Shown: piece after piece, positions 16,501 through 35,899 of the stretch
Layout of the letters: every line of letters begins with the position of its first letter
Position numbering within the stretch: position 1 is the first letter of the stretch
IMG/VR virus record: IMGVR_UViG_3300044723_001306
Coordinates: 1 to 37,221 of that record
Reading direction: 5' to 3' (one strand)
DNA length: 37,221 bases
DNA from: a virus
Lineage: Duplodnaviria; Caudoviricetes
Notes under the pieces: model-generated
What the model was told of the DNA's origin: nothing
Seen by the model: only the letters and a program-made list of their open reading frames with translations
Databases searched by the model: none
Made by a program: the position numbers and the translations under genes

Positions 16501-17825
16501 AACATTCTCATGTCTGTAGCTGCTGCAGTTACTGAAGCTCTAACAGATTTGAATGCTGCAACAATACCGAATATAGGAATTATTGTTCTACTGAAACTAT
16601 CTGTTAAATTTAAAGCAGTTCTAGTTGTTATGAATAATATGTTATTTAAATCTTTAACAATTTTTTTAGCGCCATCTAATTTATCTAAACCAAAATCAAT
16701 AAACTCAGCTTTGAGTATGTTTTTACCTTTAGCTAATTCAGAAAATAAAGTTTCGTATCTTCTTTCTGCTTCTTCGGTCAAAGCAATATTTTCTCTATAA
16801 GCTACGTTTGCAGTTTCTAATGCGCTGTATAGTGTCTCATTTGCTTTTGCTAAAGCTAATATAGCTTTCTGTGTTCTAACCTGTCCAAGTCCTAGTTTTT
16901 GAAGTACTGTTATATTTGTTTGACCAACACTACTTGTATCATCTAGTCCTTTTATAAAAGCAGCAACAGCTTGACTAGAATCTAGACTGTATAATTCTTC
17001 AAAAGCAGGAACTGACATTCTTGAAACGTCAGCAAATAATTTGAGACTATCTCCACCCTGAGCCATAGCTTCTGAAAGTTCTGACATTAACCTTACTATT
17101 GCAGTAGCACCAGCTTGTGATGGCTGACCTATAGCTCTTAAAGCGGTTGAAAATGCTAATGCATCAACAGCAGCATTATTCATTTCACCTTGTATCTGCG
17201 CAGTAGATGTAGCTATTTGCATAGCAGCATTTACTATTTCAGATTCTTGAGCAGCAAAGTTGTTACCTAAAGCAACAAGAGAAGAGCCTAAGTTATCTAA
17301 TTCACTTACAGTACTTCCAGTAATTTCTTGAAGTCTGGACATAGCCATAGAAGCATTTTCTGCAGATAAGTTTGTTGCTACAGTAAGTTTTTGTATTGTA
17401 TTTGTAAAAGCTACAATGTCGCTAGCAGCAACACCTAACTGACCACCAACTGAAGCTATCTCTGTAATTGCATCAGTAGTAACAGGTGATTGTTTAGTTA
17501 AGTCACGAAGTTTTTTACCTATGTTATCAAAAGATTTTTCTATTTGAGCAGACTCACCTTTTATGTCTAAGGTTTTCTTTACTCTAACAAACTGCTCTTC
17601 GAATGAAGCAGCTGCCATTGCACCTGCACCAAATGCTGCAACAATACCAGCACCTGTGGTCATAAAAATTGTTTGTGAAGCACGAGCTGCTGAAGCAACT
17701 CTACTCATTCTAGTTCTAAGTGAATTAAAAGAAGTTGCTATTTCACTGTTAGCACGTCTAAGTGAATTTTTATCGTAACCTGCTTCAATTACTGCACGTA
17801 CTTTAAATGCGTCTACTGCTGCCAT
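10563..17825 (-). CDS. Tape measure protein
   Basis: 2420 aa, helical and Ala-rich; N-terminal TP901-type core (FEEQFVRVKKT...GGQLGV...LGSSLVALGNNFAAQESEI); C-terminal MGG and VGEYGPE motifs; follows the tail chaperones. Confidence 0.95.
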   Translation of the reverse strand: MAAVDAFKVRAVIEAGYDKNSLRRANSEIATSFNSLRTRMSRVASAARASQTIFMTTGAGIVAAFGAGAMAAASFEEQFVRVKKTLDIKGESAQIEKSFDNIGKKLRDLTKQSPVTTDAITEIASVGGQLGVAASDIVAFTNTIQKLTVATNLSAENASMAMSRLQEITGSTVSELDNLGSSLVALGNNFAAQESEIVNAAMQIATSTAQIQGEMNNAAVDALAFSTALRAIGQPSQAGATAIVRLMSELSEAMAQGGDSLKLFADVSRMSVPAFEELYSLDSSQAVAAFIKGLDDTSSVGQTNITVLQKLGLGQVRTQKAILALAKANETLYSALETANVAYRENIALTEEAERRYETLFSELAKGKNILKAEFIDFGLDKLDGAKKIVKDLNNILFITTRTALNLTDSFSRTIIPIFGIVAAFKSVRASVTAAATDMRMFATLSERATIAGKTMATAYNTGSKGAGRFTASNVLSYSTGEDGTEIDPMLARAMVPRSFMGNRLGLPFNTLGPSGTSTTKMGKFMQLNLKERLSNLGIGKSYSMRVLDTLAQPQLVEQIFGGKTPDSLLMSTDKQEDVQLSAAGRMKMAELRKKYLAGQMKKAEFENQKSGIMSDNTITRGVEKRYKDAAFSQDYFQRFSRETALGGVKTYMPTAMGQAQARGSLLRAQMRTAPRELAIKALKKIESPSNPFKTMANEIKSVYEPQIRDIMSRVTEGIQKATGAAKNFGNQFKFIFRGLREFAMLWINGFKDGIKEIATFFKNQFGFIFRGLRDFARLWIDGFKDGIKEIGTFFKNQFGFIFRGFRDFAKLWIDGFKDGITQLTAPIRKVIGQLREGMSFGMQQDKLFRMFDPSIPNRYNNAVKAIHPTVKKIRDTINQFFKGREGLVDRKTGKSIGDEAIPSLMNRLRARAGGVIDKVKAIRPPINTETVAVRDEDGNIRNIQKKTGGFLGAAQAKISSGIKKLESMQIKSQARINQRQKMYDDLAIFRQDMKNKGAVTYKQIIDNQIKALLKRNQAETGIDPAGLTKRQMSKFRGAALGGRMGAFEEHIAELRTRAETTKDLSFEELQLLDATDKARAGMGRFTNALKGMALAAGKVIFQLVAFQAVFAFVAKMGAKSRGIEEFAASLSTVSEKLREIQVESIKLSQLTASDGPLSSITDKATLEAAEKKIKDIGLQLEKAKRDAAQEIGTSFVNDIIIAGTGNEGSLLETLIKYEMKMFEKSRDQVTKEIGSSIGNVLINAIDPEILAANAGKLPSVDDVLNSVLFNGKEIGKDVNVPSDIFDGVSSSILIGLQDSIGKSVSGKDLIDMLGIDDINDPSVRMELLYDLNNWMSKFYKVDLVDNITGESLSGGPVKALNKVFDNVKKSLEAQGLEFEDSDIAKFTLDLVQAMSTAEGVIGMSIGGIGENFDKTLSENSIIGKQVKEFMKNRLKDFRDTGLVTEAEVKRAGNNYGKISSLYLDAYDRFSKQSELTSQKLQEELGITESAALQLAARLDQAFKEARKSLVALTAPLPEDAFEDMTALDVLMNTIKKDAQQTRFEQATSLLGDLGKPVLAAELSRVGSGGLGMAEEFLNNPALAAAQEMYLRSLGGADYVSEIVPDEAEGADAERLEEMGYVLGERSVEGILQGLNDRSEEVSEAFASILMKAFDGAVKLFIIRSPSQLMRRAIGQPLIDGVIVGIEDGELKLKDTFNNVLKRATNPKDITKNLNLEGNYKGTSINYSDLTNIVASNSEFAPNKFLAQGLIKSFGTEMMQNLDMFAEKLSKSYAKATTRMQEAFQVITNVTRAERAQTNQARNLVKTKQDYASVLRRESTLTDRLAKAKENLVKLEIEGMAGNITASERIGVLQREIDLSERKRRLNKEFTAREALDIQAQERKVSELGRMFNLGIVSGLELESEQDVLRDMKGEFKTDTEKELFLLEYAEAIDAKAEYEKEILETSPELVAARDTYIGLLDEQKLIQLDIQAGANSIAEAEEAVASGVLAVEAAYAEFKEKAPEYQEEIKALDNAFGGVNERVGTLIDTITNLSADGTFDFSGLKTQISDVVSDLSELLFAKELDEMMDMGGLSDFTNMYMSAVQAVSGGTPFEGASFGTLMNQGLLGMTSNPILMDLYKDLGGKGGREITDLSNIDKFSEYMINSGSVKKRLQRPEDLLSGDGYAGIFDTLINAMGVGTVRTDDGQLAFSIANAEAISKGLSKELMASGLLGMQDSAYKQLLNLFLEGEAALRTGPVVDEFFNDDNLDPSGFGTPKAKSNININLDSGNGGGGGGASDWLRGLIGGFAENLYSGYGINLPQGMMGLRAKGFKMGGRVPDMTHISPKKYAMGGRDNLMRRALVGEYGPEEVRFVPGSGFLVKPLTHGGRGNNTVVENLSVNVTGVPADPSQARKAAVEIRKALSRLDREGSTGGSVRRN
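15363..15636 (-). repeat. About 2.8 tandem copies of a 99-bp (33-aa) repeat inside the tape measure gene
   Basis: NQF(G/K)FIFRG(L/F)R(D/E)FAxLWI(D/N)GFKDGI repeated three times; recognisable at DNA level (cctctaaatataaaaccaaattgattttt twice, 99 bp apart). Confidence 0.9.
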
Positions 17826-17828
17826 GTT

Positions 17829-18550
17829 TTACTCTTCTTTGGGTATATTATTAAGGTCTGCTTTATCCCCGAGCCCATCGGACTGGGCAATAAAAGCGTC
17901 TATCGATATTCTACTACGTGGTTTACCGGTTCTACCGGCTTTCCGGTCTAATTCTTTTTTGTAACTAGAAGAAGAATAAGTTCTATCTATATCGCCTCCT
18001 TCAACATTATCCATTTCTTCAGCTTCTAAGTATGCTTCATAAAATGGTGAAAGAAAAATAGATTTATCAAACGGCAATCCAGACAATAAAACCATGAATT
18101 TTCTCCATGTAATATCTAATGGGTTGTCTATTTTATACCAGCGAATGTAATCCGCTTCTACCCCGCTCCATCTCTCTACTATATCGCTAAGAGAAAAGTT
18201 TATGCTTTTGGGTCTGCTTCACCTTCGGAATCAACTTCTGCGTCTTCTTCATCAGAAATGTTATATGCTTCTAATAAGAATTGTAATAATGAATCTAGTT
18301 GAGGCCATGTTGCACCTGCGTCTAGCATTTCATCTAGATTATCTTTACCTACTAATGACTCAAGCCATACTGGTAATTGATTTGCATCCATTGCTCCGGA
18401 TTCATCCATGTATCTCATTTGTGTAAGAACTACACGAGCTGGTAATTGACCAGGTAATTCGTATTCTCCACCTGCAATTTTAAATTTAATTGGTTCGCCG
18501 TCAGCCTCAGCTACAGCTGCGTCGAAATCCTTGTATTTTTTGTCGACCAT
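17829..18550 (-). CDS. Tail assembly chaperone GT fusion made by -1 programmed frameshift (about 240 aa)
   Basis: The -1 frame is open from the slippery site through SINFSLSDIVERWSGVEADYIRWYKIDNPLDITWRKF into the 88-aa ORF 17829..18095. Confidence 0.85.
18200..18550 (-). CDS. Tail assembly chaperone (lambda gpG analogue)
   Basis: 116-aa acidic ORF between the major tail and tape measure genes; AGGAG RBS; ends ...DPKA over a slippery heptamer. Confidence 0.85.
   Translation of the reverse strand: MVDKKYKDFDAAVAEADGEPIKFKIAGGEYELPGQLPARVVLTQMRYMDESGAMDANQLPVWLESLVGKDNLDEMLDAGATWPQLDSLLQFLLEAYNISDEEDAEVDSEGEADPKA
18206..18212 (-). promoter_or_regulatory. -1 ribosomal frameshift heptamer C CCA AAA
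   Basis: Minus strand GAC CCA AAA GCA TAA fits X XXY YYZ, one codon before the stop. Confidence 0.85.
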
Positions 18551-18593
18551 ACCGACCTATCTCCTATCTGTATTCTAATACTTATATCAACTA

Positions 18594-20067: not shown

Positions 20068-23000
20068 TTACCAACTAGGAGTTATTTTAAACATAGGATT
20101 ACCATCATTATCTCCAAATATTGTTCCATATTTGTAAGCACGTTGGCTATTATGCGGGTAAGCGTCCATAATTTCTTTTTGTAATTTTTTAAAATCAGAA
20201 ATACCCATTTGTACTACGTCTTTAATAGTTTCAGATTTAACCATTTTTCTGTTTAGAGAATAAGCAGGAAATAAGCTAAAAGCACCTTCAATTAATTTAA
20301 AAGATTCTGGTAGATTTTCTTGTGAATTTATACCATCTAAGGTTTTATTATTTACTCCATACATCCATTTAACACTATCGTCTGCTATATTTGACCTCAG
20401 CATAGGGCTTCTTATAGAGTGGTAATATACGCCCTTCAAAAATAGAGCTCTTTGATAGTCATTAGGAAAATAACCAGTATTAGTTCCATTATGTAATATT
20501 ATTGCTAGCTGTTCTGCTGCAGCACTCGGGCTACCCTTTACATTCCTTCTACCTTGCCAAAATATTTGACCTAAATCAAATGGTGCCATAGAGTCATAAC
20601 CACCAATTACACCCATTATTCTTTTAGTACCCTTCTCTAATAACGACCCTCTAGTAATATTTTTCATAGCAATTTCTTCGATGTAACTATCTCCATATTG
20701 AGGAGCAGTAGTGTTTACTGTTCTAACAGCTAAATCATCAACATACGCAGTACCAGTGCTCTGCAAACCACTAGTCAAACTGTCCTTTAAGGTTCCTCCA
20801 GCAGATGCAGAAAGAAAATCATCTACCACGGCAGTACCATTTCTTTGAACATATAAGTCAAACAAAACGTCATCAGATAAAAGTCTATCTCTTAACACTT
20901 GTGCATTGTGAACTGCTCCTATTGAAGATTGATTAGTGCTTACAATTTTATCTACACCTCTCATAGGGTCTGTAGAAAAATCTCTAAAAGCTTGCACACC
21001 TGGGTCGTAGTAATCTTGTAAGTCTTGCTCAAGTTGAGTAAATGGTCTAGATGTTCCCTCTATACTGTCATAAACCAGATTTTTTTCTGTAAATACCTTT
21101 CTTTTACCTGTTTCAAAATCTTGTTCAACTATGTGTGCTTTGTAAGCAGCATCTTCAACAGAGTAAACAATATTTACAGAGTGAACATCTTCCCAATTAA
21201 TTTTTTCAGCATTTGCATGATAAAATTGTTTTATTACATCTTTGTCTACTCTTTTTTTATCTGCGTATCTTTTTGCAATAAACGCAGATGCAGATGCAAC
21301 ATTAATTTTTGCTCTTTCTACACTGTAAGCCTGTGATTGAAGTAAATTTCTAAATTGAATCTCGCTACTATCTAAACCATTTATGTTCTTAAAAAATATA
21401 CTATTGTGCCTATTTTGAAACTTTAAAGTTTCTTTTCGTGCAGTTTCTGAAATAGCTTTTTCTATAATACTTTTTGTTTGAGTATCAACAGAATCCATTA
21501 AAGGGGTTAATCTTTTAGTCATAACTCTTTGTAATTCATAATTTAACCCATGTATAAAATCTTTACCTAAGAATATTCTTTTGTATTCATTAATTGGATG
21601 TCTAGGGTCATTTAATGCTATATAACCACCTCTAGGCCCTCTAAAAGGACCACCCTGTGCTTTAGCTAAATTAAATGCTGTTACAAACCCTTCCCAGCTA
21701 CCTTCTAATATTGCCTTAATTTTTGGGTCACTAGCCGGATTTAGATTCATGCTTAAATCAAATCCAAATTTTTCTAGGAATATTCTGTCACCCTCATTTT
21801 TAAAACCCAGGTCTCTAATTGCTTCAGGTTCAATACCTGTAAACTTAGATGCTTTTCTATAATCAATTTTTCCAGTTAAAGGATTCTTAAACATACCAAC
21901 CATGTTTTTCATATCTCCTTCATTAAGATTTAGTACAGGCATCTCTCCACTAGCCATACTTCCATTAGCCATGTTTTGATAAAATGTTCCATAAAACTTT
22001 GTAACCCCAGGTGTTTTACCACTCCCATGTTGATATAGTGTATCGGGAGTGCTTTGTTGACCAGACAATTGACCAAGTTGAATTGTTTCTCTTTTACCGT
22101 AATAACCAACAGAACTCATATTTACCTCTGCAAAGTTAGCTATACTATTAGCTTTATCATCAATGACATCTAATATTCCTTGTTTATCCAACATTGGACC
22201 ATCAATACCTAAATTTCTTTTTTGACTATTGTCCATCATTCTAAACACGTCTGTAGCTCTTACATTTCCTACAGCACCAGATTGTCTAAATAAAGCTAAA
22301 CTTCTACCCATGGCAATACGTGCTTCATTTGCATGGTCTGAACCTCTTATGGTTCCTTTTTTATTTTGAATTAAACCTTTAAAATCTTTTTCCATTTGAA
22401 GTATTCTTCTAACTCCATCTTTACGAGTCCTCTTAAGTTGTTGTTCTTCTCTTTTTAAATTACGTCTAACTTTTACACCAGCTTTGTCAGAAGAACCTAT
22501 GTCGTAAGGGCTTCTTATTTGATAAACGCCTTCAATACTACTAGCCATTCTAAATGTACCACTTTTACCTGCAGCATTTGCTGTAAAAGAACCACCACCT
22601 GTATCAAAAATACCAAAAAATGCTGCTGCTCTAGTTCCTGCTTTACCCATAAAGTTAGATGCCAAATAAAACATACCATCAGTTCTTGAGTCTAGAGTCA
22701 TGTTTCTATCATGAGCAGGACCACCAAACTCAATTGAAAATATGTCTCTAATGCCATCTGCTTTTTTAGATTTAGATGATATACCACCAGCAGATACTTG
22801 ATATCTAAATAAATAATCTGTACCGTCGTTTTCGTTTTTACCTTTTCTTTCCATTCTGTGCATATGAATAGATTTTTGAATTTGTATTCTTGTTGGAACG
22901 TAGTTATGTGATGTTCTCATTTTTTGAGACCTACCTTTATTTTTTGCAGTACTGTCAAATGCAGGGTTGGAAAATGTAGATAATCCTCTTTTCTCAATAT

Positions 23001-25239
23001 TCTTTCCACCACTCTTTCCACGTATTGTATAATCAAAAGTACCAAATACATACTCTAATAAATCATCGTCTTGCATACCTACTAGAAGTTTTGCAATTTG
23101 TTTTTCAGCATCTCTAAATAATTTAGTAGCGCCTGTGTTTTTAGAACCTCTTGCATTTATTGCAGCATTCAACAGTGCATGTGTTTGAGTAGTTTTTGCA
23201 ACTTTAGTATAATTTGTATGTAATGTTTTTATTTTTTTATCCCACCAAGATACATCTTTGCCATAGAGTGTGTCACCTTCATTTGCAAATGCACGACTTG
23301 TACTTCCAACTTGGTTTTTAAATTTTTGGTTTGTAGAAACTTTAGGTCTACCTTTAGAATCATAAGTTATACTTATTCCAGGGACTTTACCAGTAACAAT
23401 ATCTATATAACCTATAGAGTGACCTAAACCCATTGTGGTAGGAGCAGCAGCTTTACCTGCATGATAAATATTATTGACCATACCGTCAGTAATTACACTA
23501 GATTTAGTAGAATGCATTCTTAAACCCTTAACCCCTTTATGTCTATTTGCCTGCATGGTCACTTCTCTTAAATATTCAGATTCATAAAAAGGTCCAGAAG
23601 CAGGCCTAAACCTAGCTTCAGTAACAAGTGGTGTTCCAGTTATATATTTGCTAATTTGGTCAGCTTTGTTAAACGCGTTTATTGTAGTTGCTTCACTTGA
23701 CCTTACTGCAAATGCTCCCTGTGTAAGATTTTTATTTCTACCTCTGTCAAAGTTAATCATTTGTCCAAGTATTGCACCAGTATCTTGATATCCATTCTGC
23801 ATTAGCCAATTAGAAAATCTTCTGATTGCTTCACGTTCTGTTGCTCTACCTACAATTTCTTTACCTACAACATCAGCATTTATTGACAAAATTGCTTGTG
23901 ATAAATATCTAGCTGCATTTGCTGGTCCTTTTACTCCTTTAAGAACTTGCTCAGATGCCATATGACCAAATGATTGTAAAAAATGTTGTAACTCTTTAAG
24001 ACCATCATCATTTAAAAACAATTGCGACAGTGCAGCTCCATTTCTTCCTGCGTCTTTATTTAAACTTACTAAAAAATTGTTTCTTAATAAAGCTTGCTGT
24101 TTTCTCATTTCAGCTGTTGTAACACCACCAGTAATTGTATTAATATGTATATTGTCTTCTTTAGTTGCTCTCCTTACACCAGTAACTGGGTCTTTTTCTC
24201 CTACTTTTTGATTTCTTGGTGTAAGCATTTTACCTTGACTTCCAAGCTCTTTATAATTACGTGTTTGAGTAAAAGCAATTAATTGATTAACTCTATTGTA
24301 TTCTGCTTCACGCATCATCTCAGTTCTAGCTTTTTGTGGTAATGTCATAGTTCTTGCGTCATCTTGATATTTATGATTAGCTATAGCATTGTCTAAAACA
24401 TCTGCAAGTCTTTTCTGAGTTCCTCCCATTCCTTTTTCAAGTATGTCTGAATCTGCAATACCAACTTTTGACAATACTTTATCTATTGAAATTGGTAATT
24501 CTGCAGGTTGTTCAAACGTAATACCCTCAAATATTCTTTTACCACTTTTGCCTTGTTTTATATTAGAAGAAACTTTTTTTCTATTTTTTTCTCGACTCAT
24601 TACTTGCATAATTGGGTTATCAGTAAAAGGATTAGGGGCGTGTGTATATGCATCAGCAAATGTTCTGTTACGCCATTGAATAAATACATTGCCTTTTCCT
24701 GGTATCTGCGCTTGGTTTAAAAGAGTATTATCCACTCGACTAGGATTTACTTCTTGAAGTAAACTCATTACTATACCACCAGAACCAACAGACCTAGCTT
24801 GTTTTAATAATGCAGATGTCTCCCTACCTATAAGAATGTTTGTTGCTCTATCTATTGGTGTATTCGTTTTAACAGCACTGCTAATTGTAGGTCTAATTTT
24901 ACCAACAATTTTTGCTGCACCTAGTAATTTTTGACGACTAAGTATTTGACCACCTAATACATTACTGGGATTTCTAAGGTTCTTTTTAATAGCATTTAAG
25001 TTGTTTCCAAATTGACCAACCATATAAGGTACAGAACCTAAAGCAGCAAAATCAACACCAAATGCTCCTAGTGTTGATAAGTTATAACCTACTGCATAAA
25101 GTAATTCTTTTCTAGGTAGATTACGTAATGATTTGAATAAAGGTATCTTACCTTTGCCATAATTTGGGCTTTTATCGGTAAGTGTAAAACCACCGGATTT
25201 AAAGAACTCTTTAACATACTGACCAGGTCTATAAGCCAT
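20068..25239 (-). CDS. Giant basic protein in the HK97-gp10-like neck slot
   Basis: 1723-aa intact ORF coupled to the head-closure gene (TGATG); dispersed gp10-like motifs AP...IQKSI...IEFGG...FMGKA. The ORF is secure; the family call is tentative. Confidence 0.6.
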   Translation of the reverse strand: MAYRPGQYVKEFFKSGGFTLTDKSPNYGKGKIPLFKSLRNLPRKELLYAVGYNLSTLGAFGVDFAALGSVPYMVGQFGNNLNAIKKNLRNPSNVLGGQILSRQKLLGAAKIVGKIRPTISSAVKTNTPIDRATNILIGRETSALLKQARSVGSGGIVMSLLQEVNPSRVDNTLLNQAQIPGKGNVFIQWRNRTFADAYTHAPNPFTDNPIMQVMSREKNRKKVSSNIKQGKSGKRIFEGITFEQPAELPISIDKVLSKVGIADSDILEKGMGGTQKRLADVLDNAIANHKYQDDARTMTLPQKARTEMMREAEYNRVNQLIAFTQTRNYKELGSQGKMLTPRNQKVGEKDPVTGVRRATKEDNIHINTITGGVTTAEMRKQQALLRNNFLVSLNKDAGRNGAALSQLFLNDDGLKELQHFLQSFGHMASEQVLKGVKGPANAARYLSQAILSINADVVGKEIVGRATEREAIRRFSNWLMQNGYQDTGAILGQMINFDRGRNKNLTQGAFAVRSSEATTINAFNKADQISKYITGTPLVTEARFRPASGPFYESEYLREVTMQANRHKGVKGLRMHSTKSSVITDGMVNNIYHAGKAAAPTTMGLGHSIGYIDIVTGKVPGISITYDSKGRPKVSTNQKFKNQVGSTSRAFANEGDTLYGKDVSWWDKKIKTLHTNYTKVAKTTQTHALLNAAINARGSKNTGATKLFRDAEKQIAKLLVGMQDDDLLEYVFGTFDYTIRGKSGGKNIEKRGLSTFSNPAFDSTAKNKGRSQKMRTSHNYVPTRIQIQKSIHMHRMERKGKNENDGTDYLFRYQVSAGGISSKSKKADGIRDIFSIEFGGPAHDRNMTLDSRTDGMFYLASNFMGKAGTRAAAFFGIFDTGGGSFTANAAGKSGTFRMASSIEGVYQIRSPYDIGSSDKAGVKVRRNLKREEQQLKRTRKDGVRRILQMEKDFKGLIQNKKGTIRGSDHANEARIAMGRSLALFRQSGAVGNVRATDVFRMMDNSQKRNLGIDGPMLDKQGILDVIDDKANSIANFAEVNMSSVGYYGKRETIQLGQLSGQQSTPDTLYQHGSGKTPGVTKFYGTFYQNMANGSMASGEMPVLNLNEGDMKNMVGMFKNPLTGKIDYRKASKFTGIEPEAIRDLGFKNEGDRIFLEKFGFDLSMNLNPASDPKIKAILEGSWEGFVTAFNLAKAQGGPFRGPRGGYIALNDPRHPINEYKRIFLGKDFIHGLNYELQRVMTKRLTPLMDSVDTQTKSIIEKAISETARKETLKFQNRHNSIFFKNINGLDSSEIQFRNLLQSQAYSVERAKINVASASAFIAKRYADKKRVDKDVIKQFYHANAEKINWEDVHSVNIVYSVEDAAYKAHIVEQDFETGKRKVFTEKNLVYDSIEGTSRPFTQLEQDLQDYYDPGVQAFRDFSTDPMRGVDKIVSTNQSSIGAVHNAQVLRDRLLSDDVLFDLYVQRNGTAVVDDFLSASAGGTLKDSLTSGLQSTGTAYVDDLAVRTVNTTAPQYGDSYIEEIAMKNITRGSLLEKGTKRIMGVIGGYDSMAPFDLGQIFWQGRRNVKGSPSAAAEQLAIILHNGTNTGYFPNDYQRALFLKGVYYHSIRSPMLRSNIADDSVKWMYGVNNKTLDGINSQENLPESFKLIEGAFSLFPAYSLNRKMVKSETIKDVVQMGISDFKKLQKEIMDAYPHNSQRAYKYGTIFGDNDGNPMFKITPSW

Positions 25240-30056: not shown

Positions 30057-33000
30057 TTATTTAATGGGTTTTATAACTTTTAGTTTTGATATTGGCATAG
30101 TCACTTTTCTGTCTGTTTTTTTGTGACTCCCGTCTTCCATTATTGCATAAACTTGCATTGTAGATTCTTTCTTTTCTCTATTAACAGAAACTACTATTCC
30201 ATGTACTGTTGATGGTGGGTCTGGGTCTTTATTAATAGACCAACTTACTGATTGACCTACTCTAACAAAACTTGCCTTTTCTTCAATCTCTCCAGATTTT
30301 TTAGAACTCAATGGATGATTGCTAGGTAATAAATCTTGGTCATATGGTTTTCTTTTAAATCTACCAGTTCTTAATGCGTTTAAGAAACCATTAACTCTTG
30401 CTAATCCCCACTGGTCAGCTCCTGTTACATTTCCTCTAACTGAACCAGGGTTTGTACGATAAGCACCTACACCTCTATTAAATACAGATGTTAATGTTCT
30501 AAGATTTGCTCTATACTTTGGATTCTTATCGTTGTGGTCTTTTACTTTTTGAACTAAAGCTTTTCTTACTCTAGATGAAACTGCTTTTGTCTCAGCTAAT
30601 TTTTCTTCATAAATTTCATCAGCCATATTTTCAGCAGCTTTTCTTCTAGCTCTAACAACTTTCTTTTGGTCATTAATAACTTTCTTCATACCAGATACGC
30701 CGATATTAGAAACGCCACCCCATTTAATATTTGCTACTGTTCCAGCAAGTCTTGTATTACCTTGATGTCTTCCCATATAACGTTCTCTTCTACGAACCCA
30801 GTTAAGAACTGATTCGCTTCTGTCGCCACTTTGGTATTTAGTCCAATTTCTATAAGCATCATTACCTGTAAAAGAAGTTGGAGGATTACCTCCATTACCA
30901 CCACGTCTCCAAATCTCTGGCCAATTTTCTTTTAGGTCTTTTGCATAACCATAAGGAAATTGTTTATATTTAGAATTAGAAATACTAACAGCTCTGTCAT
31001 CTCCTGGACTTGGAAAATTTGTTCTATCTTTTTTAGGTTTTTCTTTTATATTTTCTGGTTCCATACTAAATTGTGATTCCATTAATACTTCAGCTTCCTC
31101 ATAACTTACTTTTAACTCTTCTACGATACCATCAATATAAGATTTTTTTGTTCTTTCAAAAGACTCGTGACTAGCACAAGGCATGTAGTAAGTTGTTCCT
31201 CTTACATCATGCTCATGATATCCAGAACATCCTATTTCTTCTGCTCTTCTTTCAGCAGCTTCAACTGTGTCATACATAAACATATTGCTAGAAGTATTTC
31301 TATCTGGGTTTGCAGATTTTATTAACTTATCGTAGTCTTCATCATTTTTGCAAGGCATATAAAACTTACCTGCTGGTCCTCTGTCAACAACATGATAGCC
31401 ATCACAACCTAATTCTTTTGCTCTTGCTGTAGCTTCTTCAGGAGTAGTATAAGTATCAGCCATTACTGGTGCTGCAGCTTTTTTAGGTTTCTTTTTTAAA
31501 TAAGATTGTGCTTCTTTTTCTGTGTCAAAACATTTAATAACTTTTCCATCATCATGACTAATAACACACCAAGCACCATTAGGCATTTCAGCTATATACT
31601 TACCTTCATTACGAGGTTCTTCATTCTGTTGTACTCTTTGGTCTCTTAAATTAACTTGTGGATATTCTTCCAATGTAAGTAAATCTTTTTGTTCGGTTTC
31701 AACATTAGTATCAGCTGCTTGTAATTGTTCAGTCCTCGCTTGTCTTCTATTGGCTTCAGGTACATCATTTAATATTGCATTACCATCGCTATCAACTTGA
31801 ATCATATTTAAAGGTCTTAAATATACATCATGCTTTTCATCAACATTTAATCCTACAACTTTTCTAGCTTCACCAATTGTTATCCAACCACCAGATACAC
31901 CCATGTTTACTCTTTTGTAAAGATTATCTACATCTGTTTGTAAAGCTCTTACTGACTGTATGTCATAGTCACACATTAAATTTTTATCTTTAAAATCTGG
32001 TATTAATAATTGATGAGTAAGCTCATTAGCAACTGTTCTCCACATTGGAACAAGTTTTTGTTCTGTAAAAAATTCTCTAAGTTCTTTTGTATTATTAAAA
32101 GTTGCCGCGTCTAGTCCAGCTCCGAGTCCAGCGAGAATTGCTGGGACACCTAAAACAGCAGATACTCTTTCTTCTGGTATTCTTCTAAGCTCTGCTAATT
32201 TCATTTGGTCAGGCGTAAAAGAAACTACTTCAACATTCATTGCACCAGATAAAACCATAGGAGCGCCTCTATTTGCACCACCAAATTTTTCTTTATACAT
32301 TGCAGATATTGATTCTGCTTCTTCTTTTGTTGGGCCCCCATACCCATCAGTCCTTGGTGTTAATACAACACCTGGAACAGCCATGTTATTCAATAGAGCA
32401 GTTGTGAATTGTCCAGCTGATTCGTCACCTAAGATTTCTCTTAGAACTGACTTAAGAGGAGCATGTCCTCTCCTGTGGTCATTAGGGTCAATTCCTTGTC
32501 GGATATGTACCATGTCTTCGGCATCTATTTTTATAAACTCACCTTTTCCATGTGTATAGTATTCATAATGTGTAATAAGTTTTTGTTCGTTACCTCTTAC
32601 TTCAACTAAGTGAGGCATTAAAGGTACAAGTTCTACAACTTGACCTCTTGCGTTTTTATTTTTAAATAAGAAAGCATCACCATTAGTATTCAAAGCTAAA
32701 ACTATATAGTGAGACATTAAGTTATGTGACATAAATGGGTTAGGTCTTCTAAGTAATTCAGCTAAAGGGTGGTTGTAGTTTACTTCTCTGTCACCAAATA
32801 CTTGGTCTCTTTTAACAACTTGTAACATTGGTTCAGCAAATGAAGTTGCAAGAACATTTAAGCAAGCTGTAACAGCAGAGTTACCAGAACCGTCTCCTAT
32901 TTCTTTAAGTTTGTCTGATTCCCAAAAACCTGATGATGTATTGTATCCATATATGGATGCGTCGTTTCCAAATAACTGATTGTAATTTGATTGTGCTTTA

Positions 33001-33065
33001 ACTTCTCTACGCCTTGAAGGCACTATAGAGTCTAAAGCCTTTTGTAATCTGCTTTTTTCTTCCAA
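30057..33065 (-). CDS. HK97-family portal protein with about 580-aa multi-module C-terminal extension
   Basis: HPLAELLRRPNP, NGDAF, NMAVPGVVL, GANRG, VLGVP, ITIGEAR portal motifs in the first ~420 aa; TTG start. Confidence 0.93.
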   Translation of the reverse strand: MEEKSRLQKALDSIVPSRRREVKAQSNYNQLFGNDASIYGYNTSSGFWESDKLKEIGDGSGNSAVTACLNVLATSFAEPMLQVVKRDQVFGDREVNYNHPLAELLRRPNPFMSHNLMSHYIVLALNTNGDAFLFKNKNARGQVVELVPLMPHLVEVRGNEQKLITHYEYYTHGKGEFIKIDAEDMVHIRQGIDPNDHRRGHAPLKSVLREILGDESAGQFTTALLNNMAVPGVVLTPRTDGYGGPTKEEAESISAMYKEKFGGANRGAPMVLSGAMNVEVVSFTPDQMKLAELRRIPEERVSAVLGVPAILAGLGAGLDAATFNNTKELREFFTEQKLVPMWRTVANELTHQLLIPDFKDKNLMCDYDIQSVRALQTDVDNLYKRVNMGVSGGWITIGEARKVVGLNVDEKHDVYLRPLNMIQVDSDGNAILNDVPEANRRQARTEQLQAADTNVETEQKDLLTLEEYPQVNLRDQRVQQNEEPRNEGKYIAEMPNGAWCVISHDDGKVIKCFDTEKEAQSYLKKKPKKAAAPVMADTYTTPEEATARAKELGCDGYHVVDRGPAGKFYMPCKNDEDYDKLIKSANPDRNTSSNMFMYDTVEAAERRAEEIGCSGYHEHDVRGTTYYMPCASHESFERTKKSYIDGIVEELKVSYEEAEVLMESQFSMEPENIKEKPKKDRTNFPSPGDDRAVSISNSKYKQFPYGYAKDLKENWPEIWRRGGNGGNPPTSFTGNDAYRNWTKYQSGDRSESVLNWVRRRERYMGRHQGNTRLAGTVANIKWGGVSNIGVSGMKKVINDQKKVVRARRKAAENMADEIYEEKLAETKAVSSRVRKALVQKVKDHNDKNPKYRANLRTLTSVFNRGVGAYRTNPGSVRGNVTGADQWGLARVNGFLNALRTGRFKRKPYDQDLLPSNHPLSSKKSGEIEEKASFVRVGQSVSWSINKDPDPPSTVHGIVVSVNREKKESTMQVYAIMEDGSHKKTDRKVTMPISKLKVIKPIK

Positions 33066-34300: not shown

Positions 34301-34499
34301 GTTTGGATTGATGTTTAAGCATTCTTTCTAATGCTTTTTCAATAGTTGTAATTTGTTGTTTCCATGCTAAATGTTCATCTGGTGATTGTAATTGAGAAGG
34401 TTCTACTAAAACTAAACTGTAATGATTAGCTTCTAGTTGTTTTACTTGACCTTCGATAATTTGTTTTTTGTCATCTTCAGAAATATATTTGTATTTCAT
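34287..34499 (-). CDS. Small helical hypothetical protein; resembles 2320..2595
   Basis: 70 aa, AGGAG RBS, overlaps the terL start. Confidence 0.7.
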   Translation of the reverse strand: MKYKYISEDDKKQIIEGQVKQLEANHYSLVLVEPSQLQSPDEHLAWKQQITTIEKALERMLKHQSKLENG

Positions 34500-34505
34500 A
34501 TTCTC

Positions 34506-34751
34506 CTACCATCTATACTTTTGCTTACTTGCTTTTTGTCTTTGTGCTAATGACTTAGGACTTAATGTTGAAGGGTCATCTATAAAATCTGCATCCATAG
34601 GTGTCTCAAACATTACATTTGATGATACTTGTCTTTTTGTTGGGCTAGCACATTTAGGACAATTAATACTAGGCTCTTCAGTTATTCTATAAGTAACTTC
34701 AAATAAGAATTCACATGTATCTTTTATACACTTATGTTCATATCTTGGCAT
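34506..34751 (-). CDS. FmdB-family zinc ribbon protein
   Basis: MPRYEHKC....C...FEV...CPKC signature; TAATG coupling. Confidence 0.85.
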   Translation of the reverse strand: MPRYEHKCIKDTCEFLFEVTYRITEEPSINCPKCASPTKRQVSSNVMFETPMDADFIDDPSTLSPKSLAQRQKASKQKYRW

Positions 34752-35134
34752 TACACAAATCTCCTCAAGTAAGCTCTTACAAATTTAGTGTACTCTCTTT
34801 TTGCTCCAGTAATAGTTTTACCATCAAAAATATCATGATGAAACTTACAAAAGATAGCAACGTTACCTTCATTGTTAGAAATGTCTTTATTCATTCCTCC
34901 CATACCTATTCCAGTAATGTGTGCCATCTCTAGCCACTGTGTAGTATCGCATTCAGGCCATTCACACTTATAGTTTGCACGTTTCAGAGCTTTTTCACGT
35001 AAAGCTGATTTATTTATTTTACCTGTACCTTCACGTTTTTTTTGACCCATACCAGATACACCATGAGATTTACTTCGTCTTTGTTTAAATTCTTTGTATG
35101 TTTCGTTTTCGGGTTCCCACTCTACTCTAGCCAT
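34751..35134 (-). CDS. HNH endonuclease, probably packaging-associated
   Basis: ALKRANYKCEWPEC...LEMAHI...NVAIFCKFHH; close to terL. Confidence 0.8.
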   Translation of the reverse strand: MARVEWEPENETYKEFKQRRSKSHGVSGMGQKKREGTGKINKSALREKALKRANYKCEWPECDTTQWLEMAHITGIGMGGMNKDISNNEGNVAIFCKFHHDIFDGKTITGAKREYTKFVRAYLRRFV

Positions 35135-35435
35135 TTTTAACTTTCGTTGGATTATACATAGTGTACTTAACTGTTATTTCTTCTCCAGACTCAATGTCCC
35201 TTAAAAAATATAAATATCTAAATCTTTGAACTTCTACAATCTTTGCATTAGGTTCTTCACTATGATTGATAAAACCACCTAAAGGCGTTCTGTATAATTT
35301 TGTAGTTATAGAGTCTTCTATATGAGTGATACCACCGTTTACACCTTTTTCTATATCACCTACTGCAAATAGTCCTAAGCCATCAATGTTAGATTCATCT
35401 ATTGTAAGAAATTCAGGTAAAGGTCTGTATGTCAT
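35127..35435 (-). CDS. Minimal SET-domain protein (putative lysine methyltransferase)
   Basis: GLGLFA, FINHS..PN and DIESGEEITVKY are the three SET signature motifs. Confidence 0.9.
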   Translation of the reverse strand: MTYRPLPEFLTIDESNIDGLGLFAVGDIEKGVNGGITHIEDSITTKLYRTPLGGFINHSEEPNAKIVEVQRFRYLYFLRDIESGEEITVKYTMYNPTKVKNG

Positions 35436-35461: not shown

Positions 35462-35520
35462 TAGATACAGCTCTCCGAAGAGAGCCGATGATGGGAGGAG
35501 GTCGGTGTGGATGCCGACTT
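35462..35520 (-). ncRNA. Putative small RNA 2 carrying CCUCCUCCC between two hairpins
   Basis: AAGUCGG-CAUCCACA-CCGAC CUCCUCCCAUCAU CGGCUCUC-UUCG-GAGAGCUG; the cUUCGg tetraloop favours the minus strand; TAAAGT box 6 nt upstream. Confidence 0.6.
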
Positions 35521-35529
35521 AATTTAACT

Positions 35530-35760
35530 TTAGCTCTTGTTCTTAAAGATAGTGGTATTTGGTCTTAGACTAGGCATTACATAATTTTCTGCAAACCATT
35601 TTGCAATATTTTCAAATACAACATCTGAATCATCATTGTAAGATATTGTAAACTCGTCAACTAATTGACCATACTTCCACATTTTTGTTTTAACTCTTCC
35701 CTCTTGGATTTCGCCTACTAACTTAAATCTGAATTTTCCTACGATGTAATCTCTAATCAT
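35530..35760 (-). CDS. Hypothetical protein (76 aa) between the two putative sRNAs
   Basis: Intact ORF preceded by TGATATAGT (extended -10-like); no family recognised. Confidence 0.65.
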   Translation of the reverse strand: MIRDYIVGKFRFKLVGEIQEGRVKTKMWKYGQLVDEFTISYNDDSDVVFENIAKWFAENYVMPSLRPNTTIFKNKS

Positions 35761-35794
35761 GGTTCTATAACTATATCATAGAGGTATGGTATTT

Positions 35795-35831
35795 AAAAAA
35801 GAGAGTCCGCCTCACAGGACGGACTTATCTC
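35795..35831 (-). terminator. Intrinsic terminator
   Basis: GAGA.UA.AGUCCGUC-CUGUGA-GGCGGACU.CUC followed by UUUUUU. Confidence 0.85.
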
Positions 35832-35874
35832 TTCTACATACAGTACATAACCAACAAAGGAGGTAGCTTATGTA
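35795..35874 (-). ncRNA. Putative small RNA 1: hairpin displaying ACCUCCUUU, followed by an intrinsic terminator
   Basis: UACAUAA-GCU-ACCUCCUUUGU-UGG-UUAUGUA hairpin, then the terminator; CTGAGATAAT immediately upstream. Confidence 0.55.
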
Positions 35875-35899
35875 ATTTAATTATCTCAGAAACTTGTTA

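Follow-up and report, generated by a model that had tools for sequence, protein, structure and literature searches.

The window, that is the whole stretch of DNA analysed in this study, corresponds to an entire viral record of 37.2 kb with a G+C content of 35%. Profile matches assigned its minus strand to the late region of a tailed phage, with products comprising a small terminase, WhiB, an exonuclease, a 76-aa ORF, SET and HNH proteins, large terminase, portal, protease, capsid, tail, and tape measure proteins. WhiB is described as a marker of actinobacterial phages, those of Ca. Actinomarinales included (PMC7771536). A WhiB search in 401 genomes of an Acidimicrobiia-type class yielded many top matches in genomes of about 1 Mb, with larger genomes scoring equally, and one candidate host genome of about 1 Mb with a WhiB match has 34% G+C. 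Marine actinobacteria are the likely hosts of this phage family; a close cultured phage was not found in the search for relatives. Neither tyrosine (PF00589) nor serine (PF07508) integrases were detected in 5 near-complete phage records, from which the phages are apparently lytic. Hfq searches gave no match in any of the 5 candidate host genomes. The portal protein (window 30057-33065) comprises 1002 aa and has a long C-terminal extension with DUF3721 repeats, and a 1723-aa protein encoded in the head-tail region (20068-25239) has no Pfam match.

Two putative RNA elements flank the 76-aa ORF. The element located before it was named E1 and the element located after it E2. The features of this region are as follows.

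35874..35888, minus strand: E1 promoter region, with an extended -10 (35888-35880) or an alternative -10 (35879-35874)
35885-35880, minus strand: E1 hexamer, read directly from the sequence
35879-35874, minus strand: E1 spacer of 6 nt
35795..35873, minus strand: E1, predicted RNA of ~79 nt with an anti-SD-loop hairpin and an intrinsic terminator
35864-35856, minus strand: E1 anti-SD 9-mer in the hairpin loop
35825-35804, minus strand: E1 terminator stem with U tract
35530..35760, minus strand: 76-aa ORF, family with a four-strand sheet and a helix (predicted model)
35554..35560, minus strand: conserved promoter motif of 7 nt upstream of E2, near -40
35527..35532, minus strand: E2 -10 hexamer, overlapping the stop codon of the 76-aa ORF
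35526-35521, minus strand: E2 spacer of 6 nt, identical to the E1 spacer in the window
35520, minus strand: predicted start A of E2, read directly from the sequence
35462..35520, minus strand: E2, predicted small RNA of ~58 nt with a 5-bp hairpin, an unpaired C-rich linker and a UUCG hairpin
35518-35501, minus strand: E2 hairpin 1, 5 bp
35500-35488, minus strand: E2 unpaired C-rich linker
35487-35468, minus strand: E2 UUCG hairpin (hairpin 2)

The hexamer, 6-nt spacer, A start, hairpin, anti-Shine-Dalgarno (anti-SD) sequence and 3' hairpin that the preliminary description had reported for the minus strand of both gaps were all present. Conservation was more selective. The anti-SD cores are invariant in the E1 and E2 variants, whereas the identical spacers, the CAU in the E2 loop and the SD-AUG arrangement on the plus strand of E2 hold true in the window and are not conserved, the CAU being missing from four of five loop types. 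CCTCC occurs 24 times in the window. The coding (minus) strand accounts for only 7 copies, 3 of which map to the E1 and E2 gaps. A second copy of the 7-nt upstream motif was located at 35794-35788, ahead of the 76-aa ORF. Directly 3' of E2, a SET-domain protein (35127-35435) with a leaderless-type promoter is encoded, which is found in some relatives only.

The predicted fold of E2 on the minus strand was better than that of 200 out of 200 shuffled sequences (z -4.1), compared to z -1.6 on the plus strand. Within the stems, 99.4% of 518 cells were paired, and the covariation score exceeded 500 out of 500 shuffles and every slid control. Changes on both sides were observed at 4 of 14 pairs, all belonging to hairpin 2 (4 of 9 pairs); hairpin 1 displayed only G-C to G-U variation and no two-sided change. 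G-U substitutions in the stems favor transcription of E2 from the minus strand and, as outlined below, this also applies to E1, which speaks against the plus-strand origin considered in the preliminary description. A plus-strand minigene at E2 was rejected, since its three-codon frame is not conserved. Similarity to an HDV-like ribozyme, judged by eye, was also dismissed because the alignment contains neither an upstream P1 partner nor a matching J4/2. Rfam 15, including the C4, cuckoo/ar14, and 6C models, gave no match over E2 at the gathering threshold, likewise none for E1, and only sub-threshold hits elsewhere in the window (best 20.6 bits vs cut-offs of 40-90).

Upstream of E2, a TAnnnT element at -14 to -12 was found in 36 of 37 variants, compared to 0-8 of 37 in upstream control windows, and in 29 variants it is placed exactly at -12 from the first stem base. 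The -10 elements of leaderless genes in the candidate host also peak at -12. The E2 promoter looks host-type and could fire early. Two RNA runs with small shares, represented by contigs only, included a short contig over E2 at a depth of 220.9, which is what the depths of its three flanking contigs add up to (40.2 + 34.3 + 146.4).

E2 is widespread among related phages. It was located upstream of the HNH gene in 61 out of 62 loci, these being the loci with longer upstream sequence among 80 HNH loci. A pattern scan recovered at least 119 stretches with E2. The loci collected from all searches up to then comprised 94 distinct contexts, 4 of which were G+C-rich chance matches. The 37 distinct E2 cores have in common the 5'-strands of both stems, the base of hairpin 2, and a C-rich core of 11 unpaired nt. 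Three gene contexts were observed: E2 precedes the HNH gene or genes close to it, a thioredoxin-like gene, or, immediately, the gene of the large terminase, and the 11-nt core is invariant across all of them. Based on the loop and linker of E2, we defined lineages i (including the window, with variant ib), ii, iii, and iv, corresponding to five loop types. A cellular origin of E2 as a captured host sRNA was not supported, as the 8 matches of a pattern scan of the genome collection all lacked the fold or promoter and a search of 61 candidate hosts with the E2 model R1 resulted in one borderline match (E 0.05).

The idea of an equal pair of elements with an obligatory partner protein between them did not hold, since E1 was found in 15 contigs vs at least 119 stretches for E2, and the 76-aa ORF family resides beside 61 of 102 E2 contexts and is absent at 41. 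It accompanies E2 in 33 of 41 contexts of lineage i and in 28 of 29 of lineage iii, but in none of 32 of the other three loop types. The 76-aa ORF is not required for E2, although an accessory role is possible. Its structure model (pLDDT 83.6) comprises four strands and a helix. Foldseek retrieved nothing at E<=0.001 (best E 0.06), there was no Pfam or PHROG match, and an atlas search gave a best value of 0.83, to be taken as a lead only. Merely 2 relatives were found by a low-sensitivity search, and later comparison revealed a divergent family. Two further conserved stretches were noticed around E2. Several lineage-ii loci (L094, L098, L102, L103, L113) contain a conserved basic ORF of 47-56 aa on the opposite strand that converges on and overlaps E2; it was discarded as a cause of E2 conservation, since one record has an ORF that stops short of E2 and other records lack it. 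Close to contig ends, lineage-iii loci (L062, L069, L072, L075, L084) share a conserved non-coding sequence rich in G+C, some 150 nt upstream of a 63-aa ORF, which may represent either a packaging site or a further RNA.

Target prediction over host and phage start regions, as suggested in the preliminary description, pointed to a late gene of the phage itself, characterized by the following features.

18200..18550, minus strand: gene for a gpG-type tail assembly chaperone of 116 aa (PHROG 6959, E 1.5e-8)
18542..18568, minus strand: predicted E2 target site with SD, spacer, start codon (18550), and codons 2-3
18206..18212, minus strand: slippery heptamer, -1 frame open to 17829, predicted G-T fusion

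This gene is situated between the major tail and tape measure genes. The stop codon of its T frame lies 3 nt ahead of the tape measure start at 17825, and a slippery heptamer with an open -1 frame was found in 19 of 19 records. By position, family match and slippery site, the gene is classified as encoding the tail assembly chaperone G/G-T. Gene order, slippery heptamer and open -1 frame are the same as described for lambda gpG/gpGT (PMC5009743). The distance between E2 and the chaperone gene amounts to 14-17 kb, and both parts were found on the same strand in the 14 of 14 records listed with both as well as in the window. All 5 chaperone-bearing records of at least 90% completeness contain E2.

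The duplex of E2 and the chaperone start region in the window has a predicted net energy of -20.6 kcal/mol, followed by -15.5 for the next of 30 genes. When start regions were picked by 16S pairing, independently of E2, 18 records with both parts could be ranked; the chaperone came first in 13 and second in 3, of which one was placed behind a spurious ORF antisense to E2 itself and one was a tie. Lineage ii contributed ranks 1/63, 5/117, and 7/63. Record G404 has no chaperone gene; record G464 has no E2, and the E2 of the window places the G464 chaperone first of 31. The usual second-best site of E2 in lineage i is the start of a 70-aa gene before TerL (window 34499-34515), whose match is partly explained by the last codons of the upstream gene. 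A full host scan covering one candidate host contig revealed none of 1049 start regions pairing with E2 as strongly (best host site -15.9 vs -21.9 for the chaperone). For E2, the proposed masking of host or late phage mRNAs was narrowed to its second part, a predicted late phage target, and a general masking of host mRNAs was not borne out.

The complementarity extends beyond the SD. With the CCUCC core fixed and the remainder shuffled, p values of 0.002 (i), 0.008 (ii), and 0.0035 (iii) were obtained; in lineages i and ii the target had been found post hoc. Core-fixed shuffles of loci fetched after the hypothesis (19 chaperone loci out of 45 records) resulted in p 0.001 (i), 0.002 (ib), 0.039 (ii), 0.013 (iii), and 0.009 (iv). 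Corrected for the best site of the genome, p was 0.003-0.013 in 3 of 3 lineage-i records, and 0.11, 0.31, and 0.97 in lineage ii. Full-length E2 and targets were crossed 14 by 14. For 11 of the 14 targets the best E2 came from the own lineage, distributed as 5/5 (i), 2/2 (iii), 4/4 (iv), and 0/3 (ii). The lineage-ii cases comprise two near ties and G408, which prefers lineage i by 1.5 kcal/mol. The diagonal was the best among 24 lineage permutations, with a p value of only ~0.04, and since members of a lineage are related, about four independent observations underlie this comparison.

Individual target positions follow the same trend. Lineage iii has a GUG start opposite the E2 loop in 14 of 14 sites. 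Also opposite the loop, codon 2 is the Ser codon AGU in 10 of 11 sites of lineage ii and 4 of 4 of lineage iv, while AGU makes up 24% of all Ser codons, and in lineage i the Asp codon GAC occupies position 3 opposite the first bases of the RNA in 11 of 11 sites (30% overall); for 4 loci in this comparison the start was placed by hand. The lineage-i target retains a G-rich spacer complementary to the 3'-strand of hairpin 1. GAU is kept just ahead of the SD in lineages ii-iv, opposite the 3'-end of the core, a layout found in 1 of 103 host GGAG starts. E2 and its target sequence appear to change together in three of four lineages, the signal being weak in lineage ii.

These data make it probable, at somewhat better than even chances, that E2 is a trans-acting sRNA of the phage directed to the start region of its own chaperone (gpG/gpG-T) mRNA, likely lowering translation. 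The -10 element, the two stems and the complementarity changing with lineage are the sequence features from which we infer transcription, binding, repression, and purpose. With its own promoter element and fold, E2 resembles the works-like class of trans-acting antisense sRNAs blocking ribosome-binding sites (c4 type). Transcribed from this promoter, E2 would nucleate with its unpaired C-rich linker on the SD of the chaperone mRNA, and the loop of hairpin 1 would then pair with the start codon (lineages i and iii) or codons 2-3 (lineages ii and iv). In the lineage of the window, the duplex would open hairpin 1 and cover about 23 of the first 30 bases of the RNA. Exclusion of the ribosome would reduce gpG and the frameshifted gpG-T, and expression of the tape measure gene, which starts 3 nt past the T-frame stop, may drop as well through translational coupling. 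Both products of the G gene of lambda are required at a ratio of about 30:1 for tail assembly (PMC5009743). E2 may serve as a brake or threshold for tail assembly inside a long late operon that needs no Hfq, and the missing Hfq in the candidate hosts fits the long E2 duplex.

The lineage specificity of the pairing would also be expected of an exclusion RNA, produced by the first phage in a cell and blocking tail assembly of later kin, with lineages roughly equivalent to immunity groups. Precedents are the c4 heteroimmunity of P1 and P7 and STnc6030 of BTP1 acting against the tailspike gene (PMC12197685), and the host-type-looking promoter could provide the RNA early. However, a temperate carrier was not apparent from the 5 near-complete records, and the own target site stays sensitive in each phage rather than escaping. 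This function therefore appears unlikely, and the missing integrases favor self-tuning in the lytic cycle over prophage immunity.

Alternatively, E2 may be the 5'-leader of the late operon, pairing in cis over 14-17 kb or acting once it has been cut out. The shared strand of E2 and chaperone gene is compatible with this, as is the lineage-i hairpin 2, which is not followed by a U tract. Furthermore, the SD or start codon of the next gene immediately follows hairpin 2 in lineages iii and iv, where a promoter cannot fit between them. In contrast, a U tract is present past hairpin 2 in lineage ii, the next gene in lineage i has a separate extended -10, and cis pairing at such long range over translated genes is improbable. 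As an explanation for E2 in general we consider a leader quite improbable. Under the preferred model of a trans-acting sRNA, E2 of lineages iii and iv, which abuts the next gene, may double as the late leader or be cut from it.

E1 is likely a separate, clade-limited anti-SD RNA, predicted to have an SD-AUG target. It was found in 9 distinct contexts. The E1 hexamer lacks the first T in 9 of 9 variants, and what had been regarded as the spacer fits TAnnnT in 9 of 9, so the start may be 35873 or 35867. The minus-strand fold was better than 200 out of 200 shuffles with z -3.5, a value also obtained for the plus strand; thus, the strand of E1 is not given by folding alone. G-U pairs maintain its first stem (6 of 11 pairs with G-U substitutions), which displays no two-sided change. 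For a plus-strand minigene, AUG and stop are kept in the clade, yet the G-U substitutions and the U tract favor the minus strand. The anti-SD part of E1 had no cover in the contigs of the RNA runs. In partial phage genomes, most of them without the early region, the best matches to E1 were the genes with the strongest SD (head-tail adaptor and small early genes), with no spacer covariation. A specific host target was found neither in a pattern scan of 41 genomes nor among the 1049 starts of the candidate host contig; two sequences close to the E1-type start pattern were found repeatedly, one in 5 and the other in 4 of the 41 genomes. Opposite-strand genes with a repeated strong SD leader were noticed at L065:3135, L065:3636, and L054:1350 (minus). 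The leader at L065:3636 and the 5'-part of one E1 variant are complementary at 17 of 18 positions, and these genes are a possible origin or target class of E1.

Two similar units were observed in relatives. E3, a conserved promoter-hairpin-terminator unit in 18 distinct contexts with one compensatory change (L029), is located 90-330 nt upstream of E2, either in the slot of E1 or directly before E2 (loci including L093, L099, L102, L113, L122, L141, L152, and L163). No own-genome target of E3 was found in 5 records. E4, likely a relative of E1, is positioned inside the late operon in 4 of 4 lineage-iv records and consists of a hairpin and a terminator together with an invariant sequence of 27 nt that is anti-SD and anti-AUG. 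Opposite-strand frames at E4 comprise 2-29 codons and are not conserved. The lineage-iv positions of E4 are as follows.

L581:16600-16750: E4
L583:12150-12300: E4
L586:560-710: E4
L588:5880-6030: E4

The preliminary description proposed generic anti-SD RNAs by which SD-led translation of the host is switched off and phage genes without leaders are spared, a view with which the invariant anti-SD cores of E1 and E2 would agree. The E1 9-mer, located in the loop, indeed is identical to the 16S 3'-end in 5 of 5 candidate host genomes, as had been claimed, and with no E1 target in the phage records a host target is conceivable for E1. Translation signals are distributed the opposite way, however: SD motifs precede 32-49% of the genes in 11 phage records compared to 198 of 1049 (19%) in the candidate host, and leaderless-type starts account for 8-20% in phage records vs 20% in the host, as counted with a crude gene caller and for an inferred host. 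Moreover, the strongest host site for E2 remains well behind the chaperone, the 10-mer complement of the E2 core fell inside coding sequences, with no conserved start, in the 30 host matches inspected out of 33, and scanning 41 host genomes for the E1-type pattern gave 21 matches, below the reversed control. A general shutdown of this kind is very unlikely. That both elements are mere terminators or UTR hairpins, with a complementarity arising from SD usage and shared ancestry, would agree with their terminator-like 3' stems and the lineage-ii values after genome-wide correction, but is hardly credible in view of the -10 of E2 in 36 of 37 variants, its invariant unpaired core in three gene contexts, and a pairing beyond the SD that survives core-fixed shuffles in all five loop types.

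As a trans-acting sRNA, E2 shares properties with several described RNAs. Like c4 of P1 and P7, it is a phage RNA predicted to pair around the ribosome-binding site of an own mRNA via exposed loops, with a sequence specificity varying among relatives (PMC12197685). c4 targets an antirepressor in temperate phages, whereas the predicted target of E2 is a virion-assembly gene in phages whose near-complete records gave no integrase match, and E2 has no Rfam match. STnc6030 of prophage BTP1 is likewise a phage RNA directed against an own tail gene (PMC12197685). STnc6030 is active in lysogens and antisense to the very tailspike gene, while E2 of ~58 nt is encoded 14-17 kb from its predicted target with imperfect complementarity. 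SviR of the PLE satellite is a conserved trans-acting sRNA that reduces translation of phage genes, including a putative structural gene (10.1101/2022.04.08.487710); in contrast to this satellite-encoded RNA acting on a helper phage, E2 is phage-borne and covaries with an own gene. The anti-SD RNAs cuckoo, alpha-r14, and NfeR1 have a 9-nt C-rich motif in common with the E2 of the window (PMC4615179). Cuckoo RNAs carry it in each loop of 2-4 adjacent hairpins, whereas in E2 it is found once, in the unpaired linker, and lineages ii-iv do not contain it in full; membership in the cuckoo family was not supported.

The literature searched mentioned no RNA regulator of lambda-type G initiation, and yielded neither an sRNA acting on a tail assembly chaperone nor the E2 motif, which may be listed in supplements or motif lists such as the 38 uncharacterised phage RNAs of PMC12197685. 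In its predicted way of working, E2 is like c4 or SviR and stands outside the described families tested. Within the literature searched and Rfam 15, it is an undescribed two-hairpin element.

A wider reading, which we regard as doubtful, is that these apparently lytic phages possess an Hfq-free RNA layer over virion assembly, in which E2 would be a lineage-coded switch of chaperone and tape measure that also excludes kin, and E1, E3, and E4 would form a swappable cassette with one start region each. E2 would then be an RNA counterpart of protein tail-assembly blockers. Phage sRNAs with a known target are scarce, and those described in PMC12197685 act mostly on lysogeny control or host genes. 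Here, the phage family is uncultured, and covariation by itself sufficed to suggest a putative target; the step concerned would be the start of tail assembly. The natural matched and mismatched pairs of E2 and target are suited for a reporter test. If confirmed, a lytic phage would tune one mid-operon late gene via a distant RNA independently of Hfq, which would bear on how tail-to-head ratios are set.
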